Below are positions 38,271 through 58,834 of a stretch of DNA of 64,000 nucleotides, in pieces. The first letter of the stretch is position 1; every line of letters starts with the position of its first letter. A program made the translations under genes and the position numbers. Below the pieces are notes generated by a model, which was given only the letters and a program-made list of their open reading frames with translations, did no database searches and was not told the DNA's origin. This DNA is from an uncultured Gemmatimonadales bacterium (GTDB lineage: Bacteria; Gemmatimonadota; Gemmatimonadetes; Gemmatimonadales; GWC2-71-9): assembly GCA_963842945.1 (NCBI GenBank), contig CAWJIM010000024.1, forward strand, positions 320,001 to 384,000, in the 5' to 3' direction.

Positions 38271-39248
38271 ATGGTGAGAGCACTGCTGCGCCGAGCCTTC
38301 ACCGGCCTTGCCGTGGTTCTGGGCGTGGTCACCCTCATGTTTTTTCTCATTCGACTCGCCCCCGGCGACCCCGCTCTCCTCCTCGTCGGACCCACAGCAT
38401 CAGAAGAGCAACTGGCCGCTCAGCGGAGAAGCCTCGGGCTGGACCAGCCTCTGCCGCAGCAGTACGCCAGCTGGCTCGCTCGATTTACCCGGGGAGACTG
38501 GGGCACCAGCATTGCCACCGGGCGACCGGTGCGCTCGATGATCGCCGAAGCGTGGCCTGCCACCGTTCGTCTGGTAGGGCTCTCGCTGCTGCTCAGCTAT
38601 CTCCTCGGGATCGTTGTTGGTGCGGTCCAGGCGGCGAGCGGGGGCCGGCTGGACACCTCGTTGTCTGTCGTCACCGTAACCCTCTTTGCCCTGCCCGGCT
38701 ATTGGCTGGGTCTCATGCTGGTGATGGTATTCACCTACTGGGCCCGGGCCCTGCCGGCGTTCGGCGCGGCCGGCTTCGATGCCGACTTTCTCACTGGCTG
38801 GAGCCGGACGGCCGATCGGCTCCGTCACCTGGCCCTACCCTTGATCACACTGACGCTCATCGGTGTGGGCGGCGTGGCCCGGTACGTGAGAGGGGCCATG
38901 CTCGACGTCAGCGGGGCGCCGCACGTCGCGGTGGCACGGTCTAAGGGACTTTCACCAGCGGCGGTGACTCTTCGGCACGTGCTGCGCAACGCCCTCATTC
39001 CGGTGGTAACCCTGCTGGGGCTTTCGCTGCCCGCCCTGTTCTCGGGCGCGGTGTTCATCGAGTCGATCTTTGCCTGGCCGGGTGTGGGTCGAATCATGGT
39101 GGAGGCGGTAGGAGCGCGAGACTACCCGGTCATCATGGCGGCCACGGCTGTCAGCGCAGCCTTAGTGGTAGCCGGCAATCTCCTGGCCGAGCTGCTGACC
39201 GCGTGGGTTGATCCGAGGGTGCGTACCGCCTCCGGGAGTGCCCAGTGA
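38271..39248 (+). CDS. ABC transporter permease (OppB/DppB-like)
   Basis: APGDP, LGLDQPL..QY, GDWGTS, ARSKGL, HVLRNALIP, ESIFAWPGVG. Confidence 0.93.
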   Translation: MVRALLRRAFTGLAVVLGVVTLMFFLIRLAPGDPALLLVGPTASEEQLAAQRRSLGLDQPLPQQYASWLARFTRGDWGTSIATGRPVRSMIAEAWPATVRLVGLSLLLSYLLGIVVGAVQAASGGRLDTSLSVVTVTLFALPGYWLGLMLVMVFTYWARALPAFGAAGFDADFLTGWSRTADRLRHLALPLITLTLIGVGGVARYVRGAMLDVSGAPHVAVARSKGLSPAAVTLRHVLRNALIPVVTLLGLSLPALFSGAVFIESIFAWPGVGRIMVEAVGARDYPVIMAATAVSAALVVAGNLLAELLTAWVDPRVRTASGSAQ

Positions 39249-40106
39249 CGTTGCCCTCACACTCGTTGCTGCGGGACCGGCGGGCGCAGTTCGGGTTGAT
39301 GGTGATCCTGTTAGCCATTGTGATCGCGCTGGCGGCTCCGCTCCTGGCTGGAGATCCAGTGGTGCAGCGGGACATTGTCGCCACCCGCTTTCTGCCACCA
39401 CTCAGTACCGACCTGCACGGCGCTTTTCACGCCTTGGGCACCGACCGTTTCGGGCGGGACGTATGGGCCCGTCTGGCCTATGGCGCGCGGATCTCTCTGG
39501 GGGTCGGGGTGCTCGCCGTGCTGCTCTCGGTGACGATCGGGATTCTGATCGGCGCTGCTTCAGGTTTCTGGCCCGGCGCTGTCGGCACCGTGCTGCTGGG
39601 GTTGACCGATTTCGCTCTGGCGCTTCCCCGTGTGGTGCTTCTGCTGCTGCTGGCCTCGCTCTGGCAACCCAGTGCCGCTCTGGTGGTGGCCGTCCTGGGT
39701 CTGACCGGTTGGATGACCGTGGCGCGCCTGGTGCACGGAGAGGTGCGGGCGCTTTCCGCCCGCCCGTTCGTGGAGAGTGCCGTTGCCCTGGGAGTCAGAG
39801 GCCCGCGAGTACTGGTGCGACATATCCTGCCGAACGCCATGACTCCGGTGATCGTCAGCGCGGCTCTCGGGTGTCGGCAACGCCATCATGCTGGAGGCGG
39901 GGCTCTCATTTCTGGGACTGGGAGTACAGCCGCCGACGCCATCCTGGGGAAACCTGATCGCCTCGGGGCGCGATACCCTGGTCAATGCTCCGTGGGTAGC
40001 CACGGCACCCGGTGTGGCTCTGGTGCTGGTGGTGGTTGCGGCAACGCTACTGGGAGATGCTCTGCGGGATCGGATGGATCCGGCTCAGCGCCGGGAAGTG
40101 ACCTGA
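39245..40106 (+). CDS. ABC transporter permease (OppC/DppC-like), frameshift near 39870
   Basis: LGTDRFGRDV, GARISL, ARLVHGEV, HILPN, EAGLSFLGLG..PSWG. Confidence 0.92.
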
Positions 40107-40107
40107 T

Positions 40108-40611
40108 TCAGCGACCGGTCCACTGCGCCGAGCCGAGCACCTCGTCGATTCGTCGCTCGAGGACCACCAGGGCTCCTGGAGCTGCGCCGCAGCCGTAATC
40201 GTGCTCCACCCGTTTGGTTCGGCCGCCGAACGTCAGGGAGGTGATGGCAGAAGGAGAGTCGGTAGAATACCGGCCGCAGACCGGCTCGGCGGCGGCGTAG
40301 CGGCTGGCGAACGAGAAGTAGCCCGCCCGGTCCAGCTCGGAGAGAAGCGCCTGAACTCGCTCGGGCGGTATTCGAGTGGAAGCCGTGCCCAATTGGCGTA
40401 CATGGGCTTTTCCCTCGTAGGTCACGGTGCCGTCCGAGGAAACTGCCAGTCGATAGACCGGACAGCCGCCGAAGCAGGCCGTACGCTCCAGGGTAATCAC
40501 GGGAGCGTCTACCGAATCGACCGCCATGCCTTCAGTTGAACCAGAGTTAGAATTGCGGGAGGCGCAGGCGCTGGACCACAGCACGATAGCCAGGGCGGCC
40601 CACCGCCTCAC
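40108..40611 (-). CDS. Lipoprotein, DUF6438-like
   Basis: WSSAC lipobox; ITLERTACFGGCPVY..DGTVTYEG, TDSP. Confidence 0.75.
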   Translation of the reverse strand: MRRWAALAIVLWSSACASRNSNSGSTEGMAVDSVDAPVITLERTACFGGCPVYRLAVSSDGTVTYEGKAHVRQLGTASTRIPPERVQALLSELDRAGYFSFASRYAAAEPVCGRYSTDSPSAITSLTFGGRTKRVEHDYGCGAAPGALVVLERRIDEVLGSAQWTGR

Positions 40612-42837
40612 TGGCCGACTCGCATCCGCCGCAACTGGCTGCGCACGCCCGACGACAGCAGCAGGTCAACCTGAGCCTTCCGAGTGGCCAGCTCCACCTC
40701 GCCACCGCGGGCAAAGGAGAGGACCTCTCCGCTGTCGGGGTCGCGGACCATGACCATTGGATGCGCCTTGCTATCCCACTGGAGAGACACCCGGTCGGCC
40801 GCGATGCGCCGCACGACGATCCTCCCAGGTACCGCTCCCGGGCCCTGGGCAATGATTCCAGCCGAGTCCGCGAGCACTGCCTGCGCGCCCCTGGCCGGTC
40901 ACCCGGATCCGGGCGAGCCGGGCTGCACCGATGGTCGAAAGAGGAATCGCAAAGACGAAGTTCTGCTGCGCCGTGGGAGCGTCAACCACCGCGTTGGGAC
41001 TGAATGACATCGAGAAAACCGGTTTGCCATCGGTGTCCTGTCCGTCCAGCAGGTAGGGACCCCGACGGCTGGGAAGGCTGGGCCGCGTATTGACCTCGAA
41101 GGCCGGCTCGAGAACGATCTCACCGTTTACGATGTGGCCCCATACCAGGAGGCACGGCTGGATGTCCGCGCCGGTCACCGAGGAAAGGATGGGCGGGCTG
41201 GGCGACCGAAGGTAGTTCATCACACCGCGGTAAGTGTAATCGCTGATCCATTTGGGATCACAATAGCCCATGATATCGGCCAGGGTGGACGCCTCGAGCG
41301 TCTTGGCGGCCACGTCCATGCCGTAAGCACCGGTGCTGCCGTCTGGCCTGGGGTATTGAGGATCAATGCCCGCGGGACCGCCGCACGGCGCATGGTTTCG
41401 GCCCCAGTTGTGTCCCAGCTCGTGGGCCGCGACGATGCTCCCCGAGGGCAGATAGTCCCAGCCGAGAGCGGCGCGCTGTCCACTTCCCGGCGTGGTGCCG
41501 GGGATACTCACGTAGGCGACGCCGGCAACTCCACTCGAGTAGGTGACCCGGGCGACGCCGTAGTAATAACGGGGGCTGTGTTCCGTGACCCGAAGCGCGT
41601 CGATCTCGCCCAGGATCGTTCCCCAGGCTCCGTTACTGTTGTTGGCCTGGAGGGTGAGGGTGGTCTTGGTCGAGTAGGCGGCGTGGAGCAGGGTGCTGAA
41701 GGTATCGATCGGGTGCATTCGCTGGGTGCTGACCAGGAAGCTGTCCTTGTTGGTGGCCGAAACGCGGCCAAGCAGATGATTGCCGGACTGCAACACCGGC
41801 ACCAGCGTCACGTCGAGTGTGGGCACGGCCTGCACGTTCAGCAGCGCCGGCCCTGTAGCGGGGTAGACGTTATCGGTCGTGCTAATCTCCGGAATCTGGG
41901 TCACTCCCGCCGGATTGACCTCCGCCTCGATAGCCAGCCCTGGCTGGAGAATCGTGCCTGACAGCGTGGTGTCCCAGGAATAAGCCAGGGAGCTTTCATC
42001 CACCGCCGTCGGTACGGAGAGGCCTGAGGGCGGAATGTTGAGGGTCGAGAACAGCCCTCCGCCGTTGGAGAGACGGACCTGCACCGTAGGCGCCGCGGTG
42101 TTGGCCCGGTCGGCCACCACGAAAATCCGCAAGTAACCATCGCGTCCCTGCACCAGGGGCACCGATCCGCCGGCATCCTGCACGCTCTGCGTCACGTACA
42201 TCCCCGCGATGCAGAGGTTCACGCTCCCATCGTTGGGCGGAACAGTGTAGTCCACCGTTGCGGTAGCGGTACTCCTGGCCACGACGCTGACATCCTGACT
42301 GTCGGGACTCACAGTGTGAGTGGCGCAGCCGATCGATGCCGAGGCGGCGGCCTTCACGGTGTAGACGCCCGGATCGAGCCCCGCGAGCGTCGTGGTACCA
42401 TCGACCGGCTGGTTGTATCCGCCGGGACCGGTCACCGTGATCGCCGCGCTTCGACTGGTACCGAGACCATTCACTGCTACGGTGAGGTTACCGGTGGCCT
42501 GGGAATAGAACACCGAGGCGGTGGACTGAGTGTTGGTAGCGGCCACTGTCACCGTCTGCGACGGCGGGCTCGGATCATAGGTGGAGTTACCGATCACCAC
42601 CGCGGTAGCACTGACGGTGTAGGCCCCTGGGGTCACCTGGGTGAAGGTCTGAGTGGCCGAAACGGACTGATTGAAGTTGTCGGGGCCGGTAACCGTGACT
42701 GCCGATGCGGTCCCGTTCGGAAGGCCGAGAATGGTGACTCGAAGGCTCCCGGCACTCGGACCGCTGGGGCCGCCATCACAACCCAACAACAGGAGAAGCA
42801 GGAGCCAGGCGGGCCGTTTAAAGGCTGCGAAATTCAT
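40608..42837 (-). CDS. Lipoprotein metallopeptidase (M66/StcE-like) with N-terminal beta-sandwich repeats; C-terminal frameshift
   Basis: LLGC lipobox; AHELGHNWGRNHAPCG (HExxHxxGxxH), DIMGYC Met-turn, WISDY. Confidence 0.85.
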
Positions 42838-43199
42838 CGTGGCTCCTCGACCATGCTCAATCCTCAGGGCGAATGAACTGCGGGAAGAACCATTGCGTTC
42901 TGCACCCGACCTGCGCTGCGAACCCTCGCACTGTCCTTGACTCAAGGCGCGGTGTAATGGCTTGGACCATGCGGTCTAACCTAAGTTCCAGCTTCGAGTT
43001 AGCTCGTAGGAGTCGAGCGAATGTTCGGCTGAGATCCGCCGGTATGAATGGCCTGTACCCTCAAACCGGTGACAACCGTGAGCCAGCGCGTTTCAACGAC
43101 GGAAGGATCGGCAATACCCGCGCCAATGGCGGGGCCGGAGAGTGAAGGACTAGAGAAAGTTGGGGAGAAGAGGAATGAAGAAAAACAGCCGGGCGGCGC

Positions 43200-45635: not shown

Positions 45636-46120
45636 GGATTGAAGGGGGGCTGCCGCAGCCCCAGCTCGACCTCGAGGCGGTCGATAAACTCCGCCTGGGC
45701 GGGGTTGATCTTTTCCCGGGCCCGCGCCGGGCTAAACCAGGCACAGCGATCTACCTCGGGAAAGGTGAGCCATCGGCCGGAGCCGCGGGGCCACTCGGTT
45801 TTCATGGTGTTGCTCGTTATCTGAGTCGGATCGGCCTCACCTTCCCAGGCCCAGGCATGCACAATTTTGCCGGCCTTCTGTCGTACCGCACCCAGTGAGA
45901 CGAAAGGTCCCTCGGGCCGAATCCCGGTTTCTTCTTGGAACTCTCGCTGCGCCGTGGTGAGAAGGTCTTCTCCGGCTTCAGCCACGCCTTTGGGTAAGGT
46001 CCAGGCGCCCGCATCTCTGGCCTTCCAGAAGGGGCCGCCCGGGTGCGCCAGGAAAATCTCCAAGCCGGCTGGCGTTCTTCGGAAGAGCAGGAGTCCCGCG
46101 CTGGGTGAGGAGCTCTTCAG
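45632..46120 (-). CDS. NUDIX hydrolase (start uncertain)
   Basis: SAGLLLFR, HPGGPFW, Nudix box PKG..E..AQREFQEETG. Confidence 0.9.
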   Translation of the reverse strand: MKSSSPSAGLLLFRRTPAGLEIFLAHPGGPFWKARDAGAWTLPKGVAEAGEDLLTTAQREFQEETGIRPEGPFVSLGAVRQKAGKIVHAWAWEGEADPTQITSNTMKTEWPRGSGRWLTFPEVDRCAWFSPARAREKINPAQAEFIDRLEVELGLRQPPFNP

Positions 46121-46803
46121 GGCTGCACTCTCGAGGCGCAGAAGTAACCGGCCGGATCAGGCAGGATGTGTTTGCTCCCCTCATCGAGGGTCACCTCCCA
46201 CCCGGGCTCCGCCTTCCACCAGCCCCAGAATCCTTCTTTCCCGACGGCCGTAATCATGAGATGTTCGGCGTGGGAATCGGGCCCGCCCCCTTCACCGAGC
46301 CTAAGATGATTGCCGGCCAGCACGGCGCCCGGGTGCGCCGGGTCTTTGGAACCGGCGTTTGGGCGCCAGGTGGTATCGCCTTGTTCGGTCACGAGCCAAC
46401 CAACCAGATCCCGCACGGCGCCGCCAACAGCATGGGCCCGCGCCGTGGAATCCAGCGGAACCAGGTGCAGACGGCCCACGCTGGTTTCCCCGGCCCTGGG
46501 CTGCGTCTGTACCTGGATCAGCTCGTAGTCACCGGCCAGGCCGAAGGCGCGGGCCGTGATCGGGTGCTCGGCCGAAGCGGGGACGGCGGGTCCACACCGC
46601 TCGGGCGCGGTAGCGGGAGCACCGGCTGAGTGGCAGCCCACGAGGCAGCTACTCAGCGCAACCAGTTGTAGGAGGCGCGACTCTGCTTCCACGGTCACCT
46701 GGGCTGAGGTCGGAGCCACGGTTTTGGGAGCCTGCTGACGAGATTCCGTCCCGGCCAGGATGGAACCGACTCGAACGTACGCGGATTGAGGGCTGTTGGC
46801 CAT
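46117..46803 (-). CDS. Hypothetical (probable lipoprotein; true start may be internal)
   Basis: CLVGC lipobox-like segment; C-terminal GYFCA. Confidence 0.5.
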   Translation of the reverse strand: MANSPQSAYVRVGSILAGTESRQQAPKTVAPTSAQVTVEAESRLLQLVALSSCLVGCHSAGAPATAPERCGPAVPASAEHPITARAFGLAGDYELIQVQTQPRAGETSVGRLHLVPLDSTARAHAVGGAVRDLVGWLVTEQGDTTWRPNAGSKDPAHPGAVLAGNHLRLGEGGGPDSHAEHLMITAVGKEGFWGWWKAEPGWEVTLDEGSKHILPDPAGYFCASRVQP

Positions 46804-46873: not shown

Positions 46874-48550
46874 ATGAACACGCGACGTCTGTTGGGCCGC
46901 CGGCCCTCGACACCTGTCCGGACCACCGCATCACGCCCGGGGCAGAGTCTCCCCTCCGAAATGTTCGGACAGACCTGCCGCCGGGTAGGCATCGTCAGCA
47001 TTGTCTTCGCGTCACTCTGGGCCATCACCCTCTTCCTGAACAATATCGTGGCCGGCTGGCTGGGCGAGATGGCGTTCATGCAGTACCTCTGGCCCTTTCC
47101 CGGCAATCTGGTTGCCACGATCGGCGTCGCGAGCTCACTCGGGATGACGTGGCTGGCTCATCGTCTGAGTGGCAAACCGATGCTCCTGGAAGTGGGCGCC
47201 GGCTTTTTGGTCCTCCAATGCCTGCTGATTGCGATCCTGAGCCAGTGGGCGCCAGTTCCCATCTCCCCCCGGATCTCCTGGGTCTGCATCCCGATTCTGT
47301 TCTATCCCGCGATCGTCCCGAACACGCCGAGGAGGACGTTGATAACATCCTTACTCGCTGCTTCGATGGAGCCGGTTGCGCTGGTGCTGAGCCACCTTCG
47401 AGGAGCCCAAGTTCAGCTCAACGCATTCTACATCCTGTGGGACTTCCTCCCCACCTACATCTGCGCCTTTCTCGTGGTCATTCCCGTCAAGATCATTCAC
47501 GGCCTGGGCCAGCAGGTCCGGCGGGCTCGGGAACTGGGGAGCTATCGGCTGGAGGAGCCCCTGGGCAAGGGCGGAATGGGGGAGGTCTTCAAGGCAACCC
47601 ATCAGATGCTGGCCCGGCCTGCGGCGGTGAAGCTCATCCGCTCGGAGCTGCTCGGTTCGAGCTCGCCCAGCGCGGCCAGAGTCATCATCGAACGATTCCG
47701 GCGGGAAGCGGAAGCCGCTGCCTCACTCCGGTCGCCGCACACCATCAATTTGTACGACTTCGGCATCTCTCAGGATGGAACTTTCTTCCTCGTAATGGAG
47801 CTCCTCGATGGTCTCGACCTGGAGACGCTGATCGAGCGGTACGGTCCTCTACCGGCAGAGCGGGTGGTGTATCTGCTGCGGCAGGCCTGTGAGTCGCTGG
47901 CCGAAGCCCACGCGCGAGGCCTGATCCACCGAGACATAAAGCCATCCAACATTTTTACCTGCCGGATGGGGCTGGATGTGGACTTCGTGAAGGTTCTCGA
48001 CTTCGGTCTGGTCAAGGCCATGGGAGAAGGAGACCGGGAGTCCACGATGCTCACCGAACCCGACAGCACTACCGGGACGCCGGCCTATATCGCGCCTGAG
48101 GTGATTCGGGGCGATCGAGTGCCGGACCACAGGGTGGACATCTATACCCTCGGCTGTGTGGGCTACTGGCTGCTGACCGGCCGGCTGGTGTTCCAGGCAC
48201 CCAACGCAATCCGGCTCATGTATCAGCACGCGAACGCACAGCCGGTTGCCCCTTCGCAGCGGAGCGAGCTGGAGGTCCCGGCAGATCTGGACCGCATCAT
48301 TCTGGCTTGCCTGGCCAAACTGCCTGAAGACCGTCCCCAGTCGGCGCACGAACTTTCCCGGTTGCTGGCGGCGTCGGCTGCAGGGAACGGGTGGACCGAA
48401 GAGCAGGCCCACCGCTGGTGGGACCGGCACCATCCCGCTTCCGCCGGCCTCCGGTCCACGGAAGCGCGGCAGCAGGTGCTCACCAAGACCATGGACCTGG
48501 AGTGGGAACCCGTGACCACCCCGGCACCGGGGCTGGGCTCAGCCTCGTGA
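46874..48550 (+). CDS. Membrane-anchored Hanks-type Ser/Thr protein kinase
   Basis: About 6 N-terminal TM helices; GKGGMGEV, AVK, HRDIKPSN, DFG, GTPAYIAPE. Confidence 0.95.
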   Translation: MNTRRLLGRRPSTPVRTTASRPGQSLPSEMFGQTCRRVGIVSIVFASLWAITLFLNNIVAGWLGEMAFMQYLWPFPGNLVATIGVASSLGMTWLAHRLSGKPMLLEVGAGFLVLQCLLIAILSQWAPVPISPRISWVCIPILFYPAIVPNTPRRTLITSLLAASMEPVALVLSHLRGAQVQLNAFYILWDFLPTYICAFLVVIPVKIIHGLGQQVRRARELGSYRLEEPLGKGGMGEVFKATHQMLARPAAVKLIRSELLGSSSPSAARVIIERFRREAEAAASLRSPHTINLYDFGISQDGTFFLVMELLDGLDLETLIERYGPLPAERVVYLLRQACESLAEAHARGLIHRDIKPSNIFTCRMGLDVDFVKVLDFGLVKAMGEGDRESTMLTEPDSTTGTPAYIAPEVIRGDRVPDHRVDIYTLGCVGYWLLTGRLVFQAPNAIRLMYQHANAQPVAPSQRSELEVPADLDRIILACLAKLPEDRPQSAHELSRLLAASAAGNGWTEEQAHRWWDRHHPASAGLRSTEARQQVLTKTMDLEWEPVTTPAPGLGSAS

Positions 48551-48609
48551 CGCTCTTCCCTTCCCGCTGAACGATTCCATGACCGCCGGACGCCTGGCCG
48601 CCAGAGGTC

Positions 48610-50028
48610 ATGACCGGGCCGGGACCGCTGGATCGCGCGCTTCGCCTCTTCGCCGACGTTCGCGCGGGCGAAGGCGGAACCGCGTTGCTGCTCGCCCTCA
48701 ACGTCTTCCTCATCTGTCTCGCCTACTACTTCATAAAGCCGATTCGCGAGGCGCTGATCCTGTCGGGCGAGGGAGCGGAGGTGAAGTCGTACGCCGCCGC
48801 CGGGCAGGCGCTCCTGCTTCTGATCCTGGTGCCTGCCTACGGCCTGCTGGCGGATCGGTTGCCCCGCCGCGGGTTGCTGAACGCGGTCACGGCGTTCTTC
48901 GTGGTCTGCCTGATTGGGTTCTATGGTCTCACCCAGGCCGGGTCTCCGTGGGGGTGGTGTTTTTCCTCTGGGTTGGGATCTTCAATTCGATGATCGTGGC
49001 TCAGTTCTGGTCCTTCGCCAACGACATCTACACCAAGGAACAAGGCGAGCGGCTCTTTGCCATCGTGGCGTTCGGGGGATCACTGGGAGCCGTGCTGGCC
49101 AGCGTCGTGGCCGGCAAACTCATTCCGCTGATCGGCGTTCCCCAGCTCTTGCTGGCCGCCGCGGGACTCCTGATCCTGGCCAGCGGTGCTCAGCAACGTG
49201 GTCGACGCCCGGGAACGGGCCCGGCACGAAACCCATCTGCCGGTGCACCTCACCACCGCGGAGATCCCGGCAGCAACCGGTGAATACCAGATCCATATCG
49301 GTCGAGGACGTAAAGAAGCTGACCGTGTCCCTGCCCGGCACCGGACCGACTTCGCGCAAGGGGACCTTCCGGCTCGTATTTCAGGACCGATATCTCCTGC
49401 TGATTGCCTTTCTGGCCTTGGTCCTGAACTGGGTAAACTCCACGGGGGAGTACATCCTGGGCCGGACGGTGGAAGGAGCGGCGCAGGCTGCGGTGGCGGC
49501 GGGTACAGCCGGGGGACTCTCGGTCCCGGAATACATCGGCCAGTTCTACTCCGAGTTTTTCTTTGCGCGTCGAATCTGGTCGGGCTCACGGTCCAGCTCT
49601 TCCTGGTGTCACGGTTGCTGAAATACTTGGGGGTCCGGAGTGGCGATCATGGTCCTCCCCGATCATCGCACTCTTCGGCTACGCCGTCCTGGCGTTCGTC
49701 CCGATTCTGGCGCTGGTCCGAGTGGTGAAGATCGCGAGAGAACGCCACCGACTACTCGATGCAGAACACCGTACGCAACGTGCTCTTTCTTCCCACCAGC
49801 CGCGACCAGAAGTACAAAGCCAAGCAGGCCATCGATTCCTTTTTCGTTCGAGGTGGTGACGTGCTCTCCGCCGCCCTGGTCTACGCAGGCACCACGTGGC
49901 TGGCGCTCGGACCCACCGGCTTTGCCCGGGTGAACCTGGTCCTGGCGGTAGTGTGGGTGTTGCTCGCAGTGGCGATCGGACGGGAGTATGGACGCAAGTC
50001 GAGAGCGCAGCAGACCAGCGCGCGCTAG
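48610..50028 (+). CDS. NTT/TLC (ATP/ADP translocase-like) MFS transporter, multiply frameshifted
   Basis: AYYFIKPIREAL, QFWSFANDIY..QGERLF, DYSMQNTVRNVLFLP..KYKAKQAIDSFFVRGGD. Confidence 0.85.
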
Positions 50029-51200
50029 TGACACGACTCTGGTCCTGGCTCGTCGTCGGCCTGGCTACGGCCGCATGCGGCGGCCCGCCACCAGCCGCAG
50101 CCCCAGTCCCGCAGATCTCGCCGCAAGCGATTGCCACCCGGATTTACCTCATCGGAGACGCGGGAGACCCCCGGGCTGGCGGTGAGCCTGTGCTCGAGGC
50201 ATTGAGCCGAGACCTTGCGGCGCAGCGAATGGAGACCGTTGTCGTTTTCCTGGGCGACAACGTCTACCCCAAAGGTCTGCCCGCGCCCCAGGATCCGGAG
50301 CGGGCCGAAGCAGAGCGCCGCCTCCGGACCCAGCTCCAGGTTGTCGAGCGGGCCGGCGTCAAAGGCTACTTCGTGCTCGGGAATCACGATTGGGACAGGT
50401 TTGGGAAGGGTGGATGGGAGGCCGCCCTCCGGCAGGAGCGCTACATCGACTCCGCGGGTCGTGGATACGCCACGCTCAAACCGGGAGGAGGTTGTCCTGG
50501 GCCCAGCATCGTCGATATCGGGACCCGGGTGCGGCTGCTGCTGCTCGACACTCAATGGTGGCTCCATGGAGCCGCCAAACCGGTGGACCCCACCTCGAGC
50601 TGCCCGGCGGACAGCGAGCAGGAAATCGTTGACTCTCTCCGCAGCGCCATTCAGAATGCCGGTACCCGAATGACGCTGGTCGCGGCCCACCACCCGCTGG
50701 CCAGCGGCGGGCCCCATGGCGGACACTTCGGATGGGAGGACCACATCTTTCCTCTGCGGCTGGTAAAACCCTGGTTGTGGCTCCCGCTGCCCTTCATCGG
50801 ATCGCTGTATCCCTCGGCGCGACAACACGGGGTGTCCAGCCAGGATATGTCGTCTCGCGCCTATCAGCGGCTCATCGCTGCGTTCCGGCGGGCGTTCTCC
50901 GGCCAGTCTCCGGACCTGTACGCCGCGGGACATGAGCACAACCTTGAGGTCATAGCCGGCGGCCCGGTCCGGCTGGAGCTGGTGAGCGGCGGCGGGATCT
51001 ACCAGCACACCGACAAAGCGGCCAACATTCCGGGGAACCCTGTTCGCGAAAGAGGCAAGTGGGTTCGCTCGATTGGATGTGCCGTCTGCCGGACCGGCTC
51101 GACTGGCGGTGCTCACGGTAACGGCCGACGGCCAGAGTCACGAGGCCTATTCTACCTGGGTAAAGTGAAGCGATGCCCCATTGCCGAGTGCTGTTCCTGA
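50028..51200 (+). CDS. Calcineurin-like metallophosphoesterase lipoprotein
   Basis: ATAAC lipobox; GDAG, GDNVY, GNHDW, HHP, AGHEH. Confidence 0.9.
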   Translation: MTRLWSWLVVGLATAACGGPPPAAAPVPQISPQAIATRIYLIGDAGDPRAGGEPVLEALSRDLAAQRMETVVVFLGDNVYPKGLPAPQDPERAEAERRLRTQLQVVERAGVKGYFVLGNHDWDRFGKGGWEAALRQERYIDSAGRGYATLKPGGGCPGPSIVDIGTRVRLLLLDTQWWLHGAAKPVDPTSSCPADSEQEIVDSLRSAIQNAGTRMTLVAAHHPLASGGPHGGHFGWEDHIFPLRLVKPWLWLPLPFIGSLYPSARQHGVSSQDMSSRAYQRLIAAFRRAFSGQSPDLYAAGHEHNLEVIAGGPVRLELVSGGGIYQHTDKAANIPGNPVRERGKWVRSIGCAVCRTGSTGGAHGNGRRPESRGLFYLGKVKRCPIAECCS

Positions 51201-53727
51201 GTCTCACGGCGGCCCTGATCGGCTCGACGGCAGTCGCTCAGACCAGCCGCCAGAAGAGACACGCTGGTTGCAGCCGGGCCCCAGTACGGTGCGAGCGGGC
51301 TGCACGAACTCATGCTCGGCCGGGAGTACCGGTCGCTGTGGACCACCCCGATCTCGGTGGCCGTCCTCGATCTGGGCAGCTTTGCCGGAGGGCTCCGACC
51401 GGTCTCGAAAGGCGGCGGTTACCAGACCAAGTCGCTGCTGCTGGTCGGTGCGGACGGTCGCGAGTTTTTCTTCCGGTCCGTCGACAAGGATCCCTCAGCC
51501 ACCTTGCCGCTCGAGCTCCGGCCCACCGTAGCCGGGAGCGTGGTGCGGGACCAGACCAGCTCCGCCTTCCCCACCGCTCCCCTGGTTGTGGATCGGCTGC
51601 TTCGGGCAGCCAGGATTCCACACGGCGATCAACGGCTGTATGTCCTCCCCGAGACCCGCGCCTGGGCGAGTTCCAGGCCGAGTTTGCCGGTGTGATGGGG
51701 TTTCTGGAAGAACGGATCGGCGGGTCCAGCGGTACCGGCTGCGAGGTGGGGCGGCGCCAGCGAGATCATCGGCAGTGACAGTCTCTTTGCCCGAACCAGC
51801 CGGAGCGCGGATGACCGGGTGGATACCCGGGCACTGCTCAAGGCCAGGCTGTTCGATGTCCTGATAGGCGACTGGGATCGCCACTCCGACCAGTGGGTCT
51901 GGGCCCGGTACAACGACAAGGTTCCTCGAGTGTGGGTTCCGATTCCCCGAGACCGGGACCAGGCCTTCGCCAAATACGATGGGCTGCTCCTCTCGGTGGC
52001 CCGGACCAATTCGCCGATTCTCACCAATTTCGGGCCTAAATACCCCTATCTCCCGGGCGCCACCTGGAACGGCCGGGATCTCGATCGCCGTTTCCTGGTC
52101 GAGCTCGAATGGCCGGAATGGCAATCGGCAGTTGTCGCCCTGCAAGCCAGCCTGACCGACTCAGTCATTGCACGATGCCGTACAGGCCCTCCCGCCCGAA
52201 CACCTCGCCATCCAGGGTGAGACGCTCAGAGCGGCACTGCGCCGGAGGCGGAATGACCTGCCCAAGGCCGCGGAGAAGTACTATCGCCTGCTCGGCGAGC
52301 AGGTCGACGTCCATGCGACCGCGCAATCGGACCAGGCGCAATTCACTCGGGTCGGCAAAGACACGGCTGAGCTCACACTGTCCCGGTCTGATGGGAGCGG
52401 GCCCTCGGCTCCGTACTATCGGCGTCGGTTCGACTCCCACACCACCAAGGAGGTTCGGGTCTTCCTGGGAGCAGGAGACGACGGCATGACGGTGAGTGGG
52501 CCGGCCACTGAGGGACCGATGCTCAGAGCGCTGGGTGAGGACGGACGAGATCGGCTGGTGGACTCGAGCAGGTCGAATCGGGAGAAATTCTATGACGACA
52601 GCACCGGGCCGGCCCACACCCAGGGCTTTGCCACAGGAGTAGACCGCCGCCCCGATATCACACCTCACCCGAGCGAGAATGAGCTGCCGCCCCGTGACTG
52701 GGGCCAGCGCTGGATTCCCTACACCTGGGCAAGCTACGGACCGGACATCGGCCTCTTCATCGGTGGTGGCCGCATCCTGACCGTCTATGGTTTTCGAAAA
52801 TATCCCTACTCGAGCCGGCACCGGTTCCTCGCGGGGATCGCGACGGGACCCTGGACGTACCGGCTGGACTACCACGGCGATTTCCGACGGGAGGATTCGA
52901 GAACCCATTTCGAGCTGTTCGCCCGCGCGTCCGGAGTTGAGGTCATCAGCTTTCATGGCTTTGGGAATGAAATCCCAGCTCCGGGCGATAACGAGTTCTA
53001 TCGGGTGACCCAGGACGCGTACGGAATGCTCCCTTTGATGGCATTTTCCGTCGGGCCGCACTCGGAGATCCAGCTGGGTCCGCTCCTGAAGTACGCGTCG
53101 ACCGACAACCGGCCGGACCGATTCCTCGCCACGCTGGGCGATCTCTATGGCACCGGAAACTTCGGAGAGCTCGGTGGCAGGCTTACCCTCCGGCACGATA
53201 CCCGCGATCGGGAGCAAGCGGCGCAACGGGGTTTGTACCTCGAGCTGACCGGGACCTTGTACCCGGCTCTGTGGGACGTGGACAGCGTCTTCGGCGAAGT
53301 GCACGGTGAGGCCCGGACGTTTCTTACTGCCCACGCGCCGCTCGACCCCACCCTGGCGCTTCGGGTAGGCGGCAAGAAGGTCTGGGGGCAGTATCCGTTT
53401 TTCGAGGCCGCGTTCATCGGCGGCGCCTCGACCGTGCGGCTGGGCAAAGTGAATCGCTACGCCGGCGACGCGTCGGCCTACGGCTCGGCCGAGCTGCGAC
53501 TGGCCCTGGCGCGCTTCGAGTTGATTCTTCCTACCCAGCTCGGCGTTTTTGGATTGGCCGACGTGGGCCGAGTCTACCTCGCCGGCGAGAGCTCCGACAC
53601 CTGGCATTCCGCCTTCGGTGGCGGGCTTTCCCTTTCTTATCTGCAGCGGGCCTACACCTTCTCAGTCGCGATGGCGGCGGGGGACGAACGTACCGCCGTC
53701 TATGTCCAGGCCGGCTTCGGATTCTGA
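51173..53727 (+). CDS. Omp85/BamA-family outer membrane protein with N-terminal atypical kinase-like domain, frameshifted
   Basis: Signal peptide (AVA-Q); GGGYQT, FRSVDK, GDWDRHSDQW, PIPRDRDQAF; C-terminal barrel with IGGASTVRL lid-loop variant, ADVGRV and terminal F. Confidence 0.8.
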
Positions 53728-55908
53728 CGCGCGAGCCGCGTCGGCTGCCGCCCTGGCGGCAACCGTCATCATTACCCTCCAGCTCGCCGGCAAAGCGACT
53801 CGTGATGCGCTCTTCCTCTCGAGCTTCGGCGTAGCAGCACTGCCGGCGATTGTCATCGCCGCCGCGGCCCTTTCCGCAATTCTTGGCGATCCTGATTGCC
53901 GGGTTCATGGCGCGGAGCCAGCCGGCTCGTCTGGTCCCGCGACTATATGCCCTTAGCGCAGCCCTGGTGCTGGCGGAATGGGCCCTGGTCGGCTCAGCCC
54001 GAAAGGGTGCCGCTATTCTCGTCTATCTCCACTTCACCGCAATCGGTGCGATTCTGGTCTCCGGGTTCTGGGCCATTATCAACGAACGGTTCGACCCCAG
54101 AACGGCTCGCCGCACCATCGGGCGGATCACTGCCGGCGGATCGATCGGAGGACTCCTGGGCGGGCTGCTGCCCGAGCGAGTCGGGTCCATGTTGTCGCTG
54201 AACGCCATGCTCCCGGTGCTCGCCGTCCTGCACCTGCTCGCTGGCGTACTGGTGATGGGAGTGGGGCGCGTCGCAAATCCGCAGCCGTCGCCAGGTGAAG
54301 GAGCCGAAACCGAGCCGCTGGTGAGCGGTGGGCGGGTGCTGCGCGGCTCACCTACCTCCTGGGAATTGCTTTGCTGGTCACGCTCACGTCCTCGGCCGAG
54401 GGGGTTCTCGACTACGTGTTCAAGGCCCGAGCGAGTGCGGTCACCAACAGCGGAGAGCAGCTGCTTCGATTCTTTGCGGCCTTCTACACCGCCACGGCGC
54501 TCATCGGGATTTTCATTCAGGTCACCGCACTGCGGCCCTTGCTGGGAAGACTCGGCGTCGCCCGCAGTGCATCGCTCCTGCCGGCTGGCGTGAGTCTCGG
54601 CGCCGTCGGCGCTCTGCTTGCGCCCGGTGTGCTGGCCATTGCCCTGGCCCGGGGCACCGAAGTGGTCCTGCGGAGCTCGGTGTTCCGCGGGGCCTATGAG
54701 CTGCTCTTCACTCCGGTCGCGCCACTGGAGAAGCGGGCCACCAAGCTGTTGCTGGATGTGGGCGCCGCACGAGTGGGAGATATCCTGGGCGGCGGACTGA
54801 TTCTGGGCGCCCTGGCGCTGACCAGCGGTGGGGCGGGACGGCTGCTGCTGGGTCTGACCGTGCTGCTGTCCGCTCTGGCCCTCGTCGTCGCTCGCCGGCT
54901 TCACCTCGGCTACGTCGCGGCGCTCGAGGGAAGCATCCATCGGCAGGCGGGACCGCTCCCCGATCCGACCGAAGATGACGCAGCGGCCTGGCTGCAAACC
55001 GTTGGAGGGTTCGATCTGAGCGGGATCCGGTCCCGCCTGGCCATCCCGACCGACTCAAAGTATGTCGCAGAGCCATCGGTCCGACGAGCCGCTCCAGCGG
55101 TCATCGAAACGCCTCTGGATCAGGTGATTCACCACGGCAGTGCCGAAGAGGTGAACCAAGCTCTGGCCGGAACCACTCCGGCAGCCGACCAGGTCGGAAA
55201 TATCATCGAGCTTCTGGCCTGGGATGCGGTGGCTCCGGCGGCCATCGTGTCATTGCGACGGGTGGCTTCGTCTCAAACCGACCTTCTCCTCCGGCGACTG
55301 CTGGACCCGGACGAGGACTTTGCCATCAGACGAAGGCTGGTCAACGTGCTCGCCGGCGCGCCAAGCCCCGAGGGCGTTCAACGGACTTCTCCAGGCGTTG
55401 AATGACCGGCGCTTCGAGGTGCGGTACCGGGCCGGACGGGCTCTCAGCCGTATGGCCGGTGAGATCCGGAATGTTTCGGTGGACCGGGCCATACATTCTC
55501 GGCGTGATCGAGAAGGAAATAGGGGTGGAACGCGGGGTGTGGGAGAGCCGGCAGCTGATCGACTCGGCGGAAGAGGAGCGGTCTCCGATGGAAGTCGAGG
55601 TGCTGCGGGATCGGGTCAGCCGCAGTCTGGAGCACCTCTTCACGCTGTTGTCCCTCATTCTGCCGAGAGAGACACTGCGACTGGCTTTTCACGCCTTACA
55701 CACCGACGATGCCTACCTCCGCGGTACTGCGCTGGAATATCTGGAAACGGTGCTTCCCGGGTCGGTGTGGAGCAAACTGACGCCGTTGCTGGAACGGGGA
55801 GACGAAGCCGCTTCCAGAACCAGGGGCTCGGCGGCGGCGTTGGAGGATCTCCTGGCCTCGAGAGAGTCGATCAGCCTGGCCCTGGCCGCGGCGCGGCGAC
55901 GGCAGTGA
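53702..55908 (+). CDS. Second NTT/TLC-like MFS transporter with C-terminal HEAT-like repeats, frameshifted
   Basis: GKATRDALFL, GFWAIINERFDPR, LDYVFK, YELLFTPV..KRATKLLLDV..RVGD; C-terminal DRRFEVRYRAGRAL, LRGTALEYLE. Confidence 0.8.
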
Positions 55909-55965: not shown

Positions 55966-57337
55966 CTAGATCCTCGGGGGTGCTGCCAGCTCGAGCGCAC
56001 GGTCGAGCACGTCCAGTGCAAAGTCGACGTCCTCCGCGGTAATGCAGAGTGGTGGCTTAATGCGGAGCACGTTGCCGTCCAGACCACCCTTGCCCAGCAG
56101 GACTCCCATCCCCCGGGCAGCCTCCAGAACCTCGAGCGTCGGGCCCGAAGCAGGAGCGCCGGTAGCAGGGTCGGCCAGCTCTACCCCAAGCATGAGTCCC
56201 AGCCCTCGAACGTGACGCACCAGACGGTGCTGCTCTCGCAGGCGGTGCAGACCTTCGAGGAACCGGCCGCCCACAACGCGCGCGTTCTCCTGCAGGTTCT
56301 CATCATCGATGACATCGAGCACCGCGAGACCCGCGGCCATGGACACGGGGTTGCCGCCGAACGTATTGAAGTGGGTTCTCCGGGTCAGGGCCTCGGCGAT
56401 CTCCCGTCGGGTGGTTACCGCGGCCAGCGGCATTCCGTTGCCGATGCTCTTGGCCATAGTCACGATGTCGGGTATCACGCCATAGTTCTGGAATCCCCAG
56501 TAGTGCTCGCCGGTCCGGCCAAATCCGGTTTGTACCTCGTCGGCAATACACAGCCCACCGTACTCGCGGGCTATCGCGTAGGCCTCGCGGAAGTAGTTGG
56601 GTGCTCCGCGGGTTACTCCGCCCAGGCCCTGTATCGGCTCGGCGATGTACGCCGCGATGGCACCCGGCGTGGAGAACCGGATCAGCTCCCGGATATCCGC
56701 CGCCGCTCTGGAGGCGATCTCCTCCGGTGTGCCGGTGAGCATCTGGCTCGAGGGATCGGGCGAGAGAGCATGATGTACCGCAGCCGGCCCGGGAACGGGA
56801 TACTTCCAGGTGTGATGTGAGGTCATTCCCAGCGAGCTGGGCGAGCCGCCATGATAGGCATTCCGGACCGCGATCACATCGAGGTTCCCGGTGTAAAGCC
56901 GCGCCATCGTCACGGCCAGGTCGTTCGCTTCACTCCCGCTGTTGACGAAGTAGGTCACATCCAGGCCCGGGCGGCATCTTCGAGGCGAGCTTCTGCGCCA
57001 GGAGCGGAAGGTTGGGGTGCAAATAGATGGTGGTGGCGTGCTGCAGGGCATTCATCTGCTCCTGCATTCGGCGTAACACCTGGGGATGACAGTGGCCGCA
57101 CGAGACGGTGACGATGCCCGCGAAGAGATCGAGATATCGCCGGCCGGTTTCGTCGAAGACGTACTGCATCTTGCCTTCGACAATCATCAGCGGATCGCGG
57201 TAGAGCGTGAATACGGCGGGGCTGACGTACTCCCGCCGGAGGGCCAGCACCTCCTCGCGAGAAGGCCCGGTGTATGGCTGGGGGGTATAGTCGAACGCCG
57301 GCATTGCCAACGGCCGGGTGATCACGTCGGTGGCCAT
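55966..57337 (-). CDS. AGXT2-like class III aminotransferase (beta-alanine/alanine-glyoxylate), frameshift near 56970
   Basis: YLDLFAGIVTV, NSGSEAND, AYHG, EPIQG, DEVQTGFGR, MAKSIGNG, NTFGGNP. Confidence 0.9.
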
Positions 57338-57354
57338 CGTATCGATCCTGAGGT

Positions 57355-58834
57355 TTAGGCGGTCCACCTGGTGGTAGTCTTCTTGGACCGGGTCCAGAAC
57401 TCGATGGAGCCGTGGCCGGTGATGTCACCGGCACCGAACTTGGATTCGTTCCAACCGCCGAAAGAAAATGGCTCCCGGGGCACCGGTACACCAACGTTGA
57501 TCCCGATCATTCCGGCGGAGGCTCGCTCTGCCACCAGACGGGCCAGCGCCGCCATGTTCGGTGAAAACCGATGCGGCATTTCCGTAGGGAGACGCGTTCT
57601 CGATAGCGAGCGCCTGGTCGAGGTCCGGGGTGCGAACGATCGCCAGCACCGGCCCGAAGATTTCTTCCTGGGCAATGGTCATGTCCGGGCGCACCCGATC
57701 CAGAATGGTCGGGCCGATCCAGAAGCCACCGTCCCTCCCCGGCACGCTGGGGTAACGTCCGTCGAGCAGCAGGGTGGCCCCGGCCGAAACTGCTTCGTCC
57801 ACGGCGCGGCGGATGCGGTCGCGGGCCTCACCGGAAATCACCGGGCCGATATCCCGGCCGGGCACCAGGGTGCGGGCCTGCTCGATCAGGCGTCCGATGA
57901 TGTGCTCCGTTCCCCCCACCGCCAGCATCACCGATCCCGCCATGCATCGCTGGCCGGAACATCCCGACATCGAGGCCAGCACGCTGCCGGCAGCCATGTC
58001 GGGATTGGCGTCGGGAAGCACGAAGAGGTGATTCTTGGCGCCCCCCAGCGCCAAAGCACGCTTCAGGCTGGCGGTGGCCCGGCGATATACCAGCTTGGCA
58101 ACCCGAGTCGAGCCCACAAAGCTCACGGCCGCTATGCCGGGGTGGTCACAGATCCCTTCCACCACTTCCTGACCGCCGTGAATGACGTTGAACACGCCCG
58201 GTGGAAGCCCAGCTTCGGTGAGCAGCTCCGCAAGGCGCTGCGCACTGAGGGGGACCTGTTCCGAAGGCTTGAGCACAAGGCAGTTGCCCAGCGCAATCGC
58301 GTTGGGGATGGTCCAGTTGGGCACCATGCTGGGGAAGTTGAACGGAGCGATCGAAGCCACGACGCCGATCGGATGCCGGTCCATCCGGCATTCCACCCCG
58401 CGGCTCACCTCCAGCACCTCGCCGGTGGCAATCTCGGGAAGGGAGCAGGCGAACTCGGTCAACTCGATCGCCTTGGCTATCTCGGCCTCCGCCTCGCTCT
58501 GAATCTTTCCGTGTTCTTCAGAGATCAGGCCGGCCAGCTCACCCAGGTTCTGTTCCAGTAAGCTGCGATAGCGAAAGAAGATCTGCACCCGCTCCTTGAT
58601 GGGGGTAGTGCTCCATGCGGGAAACGCTGCTGCCGCTGCGTCGACCGCCGCCGTCAGGTCAGACGTGGACGAGAGTGGGACATGGGAAAGGAGGCTCCCG
58701 TCACTCGGGTTCAGCACCTCGAGCTCGCTCCGTGCGGTGCTCGACGTGAACCTGCCGCCGACAAAATTGCGGACGGCCGGATATCTGGTGCGGGGCACGA
58801 GGGGAGCAGAAGCTCGGGGGGCACTCGAAGTCAT
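57355..58834 (-). CDS. mmsA: CoA-acylating (methyl)malonate-semialdehyde dehydrogenase, C-terminal frameshift
   Basis: APFNFP, LKPSE, FVGST, GGAKNH, GQRCMA, EEIFGP, GINVGVPVP, FGGW. Confidence 0.9.

Follow-up and report, generated by a model that had tools for sequence, protein, structure and literature searches.

The kinases CotH and Fam20C act outside the cytosol, and Fam20C is fed by the import of ATP into organelles. By the common view there is no ATP in the periplasm, and for this reason we know of no phosphoryl donor for the exported kinases of bacteria. Here we describe a five-gene locus that offers a candidate route of ATP supply to such kinases. It lies at positions 46874-55908, on the plus strand, of a 64,000-nucleotide stretch (the window) from the genome of an uncultured soil bacterium of the Gemmatimonadales (G000; 4.3 Mb, 24 contigs, 87% complete; G codes denote genomes and L codes the loci used for comparison). 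In this locus an exported kinase with complete catalytic residues is joined to an Omp85 barrel, and two carriers of the NTT family (NTT1 and NTT2) and a transmembrane (TM) Ser/Thr kinase are conserved beside it. Every part belongs to a known superfamily; the module we rate as new in kind, its function being unproven.

The NTT-HEAT fusions, among which NTT2 falls, are given as uncharacterised in the relevant sections of Major et al. (2017, PMC5381601), and those sections of its main text propose no exported kinase as their partner. The sections of Heinz and Lithgow (2014, PMC4104836) that deal with the 'Metallo' Omp85 proteins describe the additional domain as a metalloprotease and nowhere use the word 'kinase'. 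No description of a module of kinase-Omp85 protein and NTT carriers was found in the literature searched, the scope of which did not extend to closed journals and supplements.

All protein analyses were made on intact relatives and not on the copies in the window, four of which are broken by insertions or deletions (indels). The mature kinase-Omp85 protein of G011 was modeled by AlphaFold2 from a 122-row alignment (predicted local distance difference test, pLDDT, 94.8), and the model was compared by VIA and Foldseek. The N-terminal domain, termed K1 (model residues 1-348), matched PI4KIIa (Z 14.9, root-mean-square deviation (rmsd) 4.1, 251 aligned), as well as CotH (Z 14.3), CtkA (Z 13.4), HipA (Z 11.8) and Fam20C (Z 11.0). 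The barrel matched those of TamA (Z 26.4, rmsd 2.8, 293 aligned) and BamA (E 1.6e-10). Residues D208, R211, D237 and R76 of K1 are present in 122 of 122 rows, and D210, D235 and K80 in 121; we take the catalytic-loop and metal-binding aspartates to have their usual roles, by analogy of motif. Since the Gly loop, R76/K80, D101, DRHxxQ and DRD are all near-invariant, K1 is, judged by its residues, catalytically complete and not a dead kinase. The fold match and the conserved catalytic residues bear out the original prediction, made from the DNA alone, of an exported kinase-like N-terminus on an Omp85 barrel. Pfam and NCBIfam recognize the barrel only, a search of the K1 sequence against the PDB gave nothing under E 0.4, and among named Atlas clusters those of CotH and HipA come closest (0.78-0.79), which is a lead only. 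The kinase has been overlooked in the 'Metallo/noNterm' Omp85 proteins, of which we count 2,787 relatives at 50% clustering.

Between K1 and the barrel lies a domain of short strands (model residues 350-480, a middle part not folded alone), with the motif GxGxDxL in 91 of the 122 rows; it may be an RTX-like linker. Pfam detected no POTRA domain in the protein. The K1 domain would be periplasmic, held under its barrel, by analogy with PlpD, whose enzyme domain stays in the periplasm (PMC11116518, in the part that treats its location). A phosphoesterase domain (PF00149) is encoded by a separate gene in the window and its relatives and is fused to the barrel protein in L117.

The carriers were placed by a tree of 171 NTT-like domains (FastTree, midpoint-rooted, as was the K1 tree), which separated the NTT-HEAT fusions, with NTT2 among them (support 0.97), from clade B (0.999) and from clade C, which contains NTT1 (0.82). 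We searched for NTT1 in 251 Gemmatimonadota (a tally that includes the unpublished G087), 201 Acidobacteriota and 201 Myxococcota genomes and took 120 regions from the best-ranked matches. The unplaced L171 and the HEAT paralogues L236-L240 were left out of the locus count, seven fragmentary loci were assigned to clade C by identity, and the clade of seven weaker-match genomes was judged by score. Of the 79 clade-C loci, 37 encoded an exported atypical kinase no more than about 9 kb from the carrier gene; in the sister clade B none of 35 loci did. The Fisher P values of this association are overstated, as the loci include kin and are not independent. The 37 divide into 21/29 Gemmatimonadota, 7/31 Acidobacteriota and 9/19 Myxococcota loci; among clade-C loci with both flanks of at least 5 kb, 26/50 had the kinase. 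Co-localization, for which the original prediction named four phyla as a check, extends over these three. It was rejected for Bacteroidota: none of 27 Bacteroidota, Chlorobi, Ignavibacteria or Rhodothermia loci had an NTT near K1.

Four families occupy the kinase slot: K1 (19 loci), K2 (14), K3 (3) and K4 (5). K2 is an exported protein of its own, whose usual neighbour is an Omp85 barrel that lacks an enzyme domain, and the K2 model (pLDDT 90.7) matched CtkA (Z 13.8) and Fam20 (Z 13.3), with PI4KII and CotH also within Z 12-14. K3 gave weak PI3_PI4_kinase and HipA_2 matches and is fused to or stands beside a second phosphoesterase family. K4, a weak item, is presumably CotH-like by motif only; its loci form one clade and often place it 7-9 kb from NTT1. 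The relationship among K1, K2 and K3 is remote, with HHalign probabilities of 3-40%, and K4 could not be aligned to them. In Myxococcota, 14 of 16 genomes with the NTT1 clade hold K2 (21/201 overall), and K1 or K3 adjoins NTT1 in the remaining two; in Acidobacteriota, K2 is found in 13/26 clade-C genomes versus 36/201 overall, the tally including the unpublished G329. Kinase and NTT-HEAT occurred together in 28 clade-C loci, the kinase only in 9, NTT-HEAT only in 4 and neither in 38. The pair of NTT1 and NTT-HEAT, with a kinase in 28 of its 32 loci, marks exported-kinase loci, and in the NTT2 subclade the TM kinase was present in 20/23 loci. A larger variant (L141:12558-17347, L147, L151) contains two TM kinases, a DegP-like protease, an empty Omp85, K2, NTT1, NTT2 and a CotH-like K4. 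In L195:7508-12648, L211:11917-14079 and L220:11015-13766 the second phosphoesterase family, as a fusion with K3 or as its neighbour, lies next to NTT1.

Both carriers belong to the NTT family, as predicted, but they lack the residue set of canonical ATP/ADP exchangers. The intact NTT1 orthologue, with 11 TM helices, gave a TLC (PF03219) match above cut-off (E 4.7e-11), and NTT2 fell below it; profiles of the two against the PDB matched only the solved NTTs 9j3n and 9j3j (E 1.6e-23 and 8.2e-29). The HEAT region predicted for NTT2 is sustained by its place in the tree and by its L087 orthologue, in which HEAT_2 is above cut-off (weak in NTT2 itself, E 0.0029). A cyclic-nucleotide-binding domain (PF00027) was not found in NTT2, and the gene that follows is a convergent aminotransferase. 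Canonical ATP/ADP exchange depends on residues K155, E245, E385 and K527 of AtNTT1 (PMC10654386 and PMC3306366, relevant sections), which we placed along the 9j3j chain with a fixed offset of 84. NTT2 has no Lys, Thr/Gly, Asp and Asp at these sites and keeps only the Asp at the E385 position. The score with TIGR00769, which tests for canonical exchangers, was 42.8 bits versus a cut-off of 387.2. Because K155 and E245 are absent and K527 is replaced by Asp, the residues place NTT1 and NTT2 in the NTT family but not among the canonical exchangers of ATP for ADP and inorganic phosphate (Pi). Charges in the pore of NTT1 are invariant at R57, K383, E386, K410, K414, D418 and R423. A complex prediction for NTT1 with NTT2, its controls not folded, scored 0.00 and weighs on neither side of the question of binding.

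The locus is bordered by a divergent gene (ending at 46803) and a convergent gene (55966), and its parts are listed in the table below. The five co-directional genes are real, undamaged copies of the set being present in G011, G008 and G024; the exact five-gene order is mostly confined to one genus. Their proposed identities agree with Pfam matches on the broken pieces (Pkinase, TLC (weak), Metallophos, Omp85 and HEAT) and with the intact orthologues. Two of the three proposed junctions stand: the NTT1 stop (50026-50028) overlaps the GTG start of the phosphoesterase, and the Omp85 stop (53725-53727) overlaps the ATG of NTT2 at 53702, a start shared by L047. The third, an overlap at 51173-51200, was rejected: it arises from the indel near 51031, and the phosphoesterase in fact stops at 51166-51168, with the Omp85 ATG following 4 bases later. 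A promoter and terminator scan of the locus found no excess above shuffles. On the minus strand at 46117-46803, a small lipoprotein-like gene without Pfam match diverges from the putative operon and is kept beside it in 5 same-genus loci.

Table. Features of the locus (positions in the window).
Feature	Positions	Strand	Remarks
Membrane Hanks-type Ser/Thr kinase	46874..48550	+	intact; 5-6 N-terminal TM helices, cytoplasmic kinase domain; Pkinase E 4.8e-43
NTT1, single-domain NTT-family carrier, ~483 aa intact	48579..50028	+	~8 indels and a frame change near the 5' end
Exported metallophosphoesterase lipoprotein	50028..51168	+	Metallophos E 1.1e-07 (above cut-off); one indel near 51031
Signal peptide, K1 atypical kinase, Gly/Asp beta-rich linker and 16-strand Omp85 barrel	51173..53727	+	four indels
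K1 kinase domain	51258..52291	+	Gly loop, R/K in strand 3, DRHxxQ catalytic loop, DRD metal motif
Short beta-strand repeat domain, GxGxDxL motifs	52294..52690	+	short strands in model
Omp85 beta-barrel, 16 strands, C-terminal Phe	52705..53727	+	TamA Z 26.4
NTT2, NTT membrane domain and C-terminal helical/HEAT region, without cyclic nucleotide monophosphate domain	53702..55908	+	four indels

Compared with the intact G011 copy (84% nucleotide identity), the locus has about 17 frame-breaking indels: 8 in NTT1, 1 in the phosphoesterase, 4 in the Omp85 gene, 4 in NTT2 and 0 in the TM kinase. Assembly error is probably their cause. No stop codon created by substitution was seen in the four indel-bearing genes, near-identical short soil-run contigs differ by a single gap at each of the two breaks that they cross (~51031 and ~51255), and the flanking genes carry indels too. 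Aminotransferase, aldehyde dehydrogenase, permease and peptidase-like genes at 55966-58834 and 39245-42945 are frameshifted as well.

The TM kinase is Hanks-type by its Gly loop (231), Lys motif (251), HRDIKPxN (352), DFG (376) and APE (407), all of which are present, and hydropathy gave 5 TM helices for the G008 orthologue. Four more paralogues of the same membrane family (28-33% identity) on contigs C21, C23, C5 and C11 of G000 have neither NTT nor K1 neighbours, and the genome holds about 65 Ser/Thr kinase loci. The phosphoesterase orthologues have all five calcineurin-like metal-binding motifs, a set that we take to be of purple-acid-phosphatase type, and a lipobox-like Cys, in keeping with the exported lipoprotein that had been predicted; a sequence search against the PDB gave no match. 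A phosphoesterase of this type is present in no more than 6 of the 29 NTT1 loci of Gemmatimonadota, 5 of them in this genus, so it is an accessory and was rejected as a core part of the module.

The reading that we favour, at a probability of about 0.5, is that the carrier pair exports ATP and retrieves ADP for the envelope kinase, with the lipoprotein phosphatase reversing the mark and the TM kinase as regulator. NTT1 would be a reversed NTT that passes ATP out and takes ADP in without phosphate, as the phosphate would stay on the substrate; NTT2 would be its partner or regulator. K1 would phosphorylate a protein, lipid or glycan of the envelope, the phosphatase would take the mark off, and the TM kinase would control the module, its probable point of action being the HEAT region of NTT2. 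The cargo at the barrel that the original prediction envisaged found no support. We infer the direction, substrate, location, co-transcription and regulation of the module. Export is suggested by the constancy of NTT1 while the kinase families K1-K4 swap beside it, and also by the Asp that both carriers have where canonical NTTs have K527 (K446 of PamNTT1). According to the sections of PMC2606016 on PamNTT1 K446E, the Km for ADP import against internal ATP falls with this substitution from 1401 to 29, that for ATP import climbs from 8.6 to 552, and Pi uptake is blocked. This shift, with the Pi block, fits an exporter whose phosphate remains outside, and by analogy the acidic residue suggests the direction that an exporter needs.

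Several observations, beside the kinship of the loci, weigh against this reading. The equivalents of the four AtNTT1 residues in NTT1 are Ala73, Gly134, Gly290/Glu291 and Asp426; the Asp at the K527 position is not specific to NTT1, because it is invariant in the sister clade B too; and AtNTT1 K527E bound no ATP (PMC3306366, relevant section). A characterized NTT, S. negevensis NTT4, moved no nucleotides according to the relevant section of PMC5381601. No known exported kinase occurs in 42/79 clade-C loci, among them an Acidobacteriota subclade of NTT1 (L186-L198), the neighbours of which, named by eye, are inositol-phosphate-synthase-like, prenyl-diphosphate-synthase-like and MATE-like genes. 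From the side of the kinase, an NTT is lacking in the vicinity of K1 in 73 of the best 80 of 603 GTDB loci, and no difference in the K1 active site separates the NTT from the polyphosphate context. Seven genomes with K1 in a non-NTT context, and 5 of 29 K2 genomes without a clade-C match, gave no NTT-like match with the A4 profile. At 11 in 9.7 kb, frame switches are denser at the locus than elsewhere (8 in 24.5 kb), for which reason the window copy may be decaying.

Since K1 and K2 genomes without an NTT-like match exist, the NTTs are one supply option and not a requirement. Among the same best 80 K1 loci, 7 had an NTT-like gene and 36 had polyphosphate-type genes (ppk1 19, DUF4956 18, HD-PycTM 13, CYTH-like 11, SixA 7), with an overlap of 0; among the 42 loci of at least 15 kb the counts were 3 and 27. 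The NTT-linked K1s form one nested part of the K1 tree, at a weak node support of 0.36. It is as if one donor supply had replaced another, as the two contexts exclude each other and the NTT-linked K1s are nested. In 6 of the 29 K2 genomes without clade-C match, a different NTT-like gene stands no more than 10 kb from K2, and eight further K2 neighbourhoods included 1 NTT-HEAT, 2 phosphoesterase and at least 6 Omp85 genes. K1-Omp85 genes in L072:6206-15678, L090, L094, L077, L102 and L112 stand with DUF4956, CYTH-ppk1, SixA, HD-PycTM, an SdiA-regulated propeller and PAP2; loci of the DUF4956/CYTH-ppk1/SixA type never contain an NTT.

Of the alternatives, a scavenging island survives best, though we consider it unlikely. 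The kinase, displayed or secreted in a type Vd-like manner, would process external phosphorylated compounds together with the phosphatase, the carriers importing nucleotides or products. The characterized NTTs all import, for parasites or plastids (PMC5381601, relevant sections), the RTX-like linker may be an extracellular Ca-binding segment, and the neighbours of K1 (ppk1, SixA, PAP2, phosphoesterase) are genes of phosphate economy. Scavenging needs no kinase, however, yet four kinase families recur; the PlpD precedent (PMC11116518, same part) argues for a periplasmic enzyme domain, K2 is a separate exported protein next to an empty Omp85, and the acidic K527 position disfavours ATP import. 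Quite unlikely, too, is trans-envelope signalling with little or no ATP flux, in which K1 would be a nucleotide or ligand sensor, NTT2 a non-transporting transceptor or scaffold and the TM kinase the output. It would account for the lost canonical transport residues and for the joint occurrence of TM kinase and NTT2 subclade (20/23 loci), often with extra TM kinases; a DegP-like protease occurs in 7/29 Gemmatimonadota loci, and NTT-HEAT fusions often carry cyclic nucleotide monophosphate domains (PMC5381601, relevant sections). A sensor sits poorly with the retention of all K1 catalytic residues and of the invariant pore charges of NTT1, and in Myxococcota the exported kinase is found in 9/19 loci but the TM kinase in only 1.

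Improbable in our view is a cargo other than ATP: the carriers would move NAD(P), a nucleotide sugar, or else what the kinase acts on or makes, and the phosphoryl donor would have another source, such as polyphosphate in the manner of the DUF4956/ppk1 loci. The failed ATP/ADP residue test, the identical K1 site in both contexts and the partners of the sister clade (described below) all speak for it. Against it stand the mutual exclusion of NTT and polyphosphate contexts and the gene content of G000, in which ppk1 is on another contig and no K2, K3, K4, DUF4956 or CYTH-like gene was found (genome 87% complete). That the gene order is inherited and has no functional link, as its near confinement to one genus might suggest, has next to no probability, being largely refuted by the kinase counts near NTT1; the order is also shuffled (L087, L140, L142), partners are exchanged, and the loci come from three phyla.

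Clade B (L154-L185, L241-L245) adjoins aldo-keto reductases (9/35) or NAD epimerase-like proteins (12/35). Many of these partners have motifs for twin-arginine (TAT) export, and most lie within 100 bases of the carrier; several of the genes occur as divergent pairs. The clade B carriers are candidate exporters of NAD(P)(H) into the periplasm. Tentatively, and with the odds somewhat against it, the free-living NTT clades could be reversed carriers in general, the pair supplying ATP to four kinase families and the sister clade NAD(P)(H) to TAT oxidoreductases, with DUF4956/polyphosphate as an older, interchangeable donor supply; on this tentative view bacteria would run a kinase system like that of the secretory pathway in their cell envelope. 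The module provides a first testable function for the uncharacterized NTT and NTT-HEAT genes of free-living bacteria, with a transport direction predicted from a single residue.

In comparison with known systems, the carriers resemble the NTT/AAA carriers (Major et al. 2017, PMC5381601, relevant sections) by homology to the solved NTTs, by the NTT-HEAT type of fusion in NTT2 and by a free-living host; they differ from the canonical members in the residues given above and in the missing cyclic nucleotide-binding domain of NTT2. With the 'Metallo' and 'noNterm' proteins, as treated in the relevant sections of Heinz and Lithgow (2014, PMC4104836), the Omp85 protein shares its barrel type and the association with a PF00149-type phosphoesterase, fused in L117 and adjacent in the window; unlike in 'Metallo', the window phosphoesterase is split off as its own gene and NTT carriers are added. 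The patatin-Omp85 protein PlpD (PMC11116518, relevant sections) likewise has an enzyme domain fused to an Omp85 barrel and is the precedent for a periplasmic location, but it is lipase-type, has POTRA and needs no ATP. K1 shares its fold and the order of its catalytic motifs with CotH, Fam20C, PI4KII, HipA and CtkA, from which it differs in its identity of 10-14% and in being anchored to a barrel. Fam20C, with its supply of imported ATP, is the functional analogy for the proposed module.

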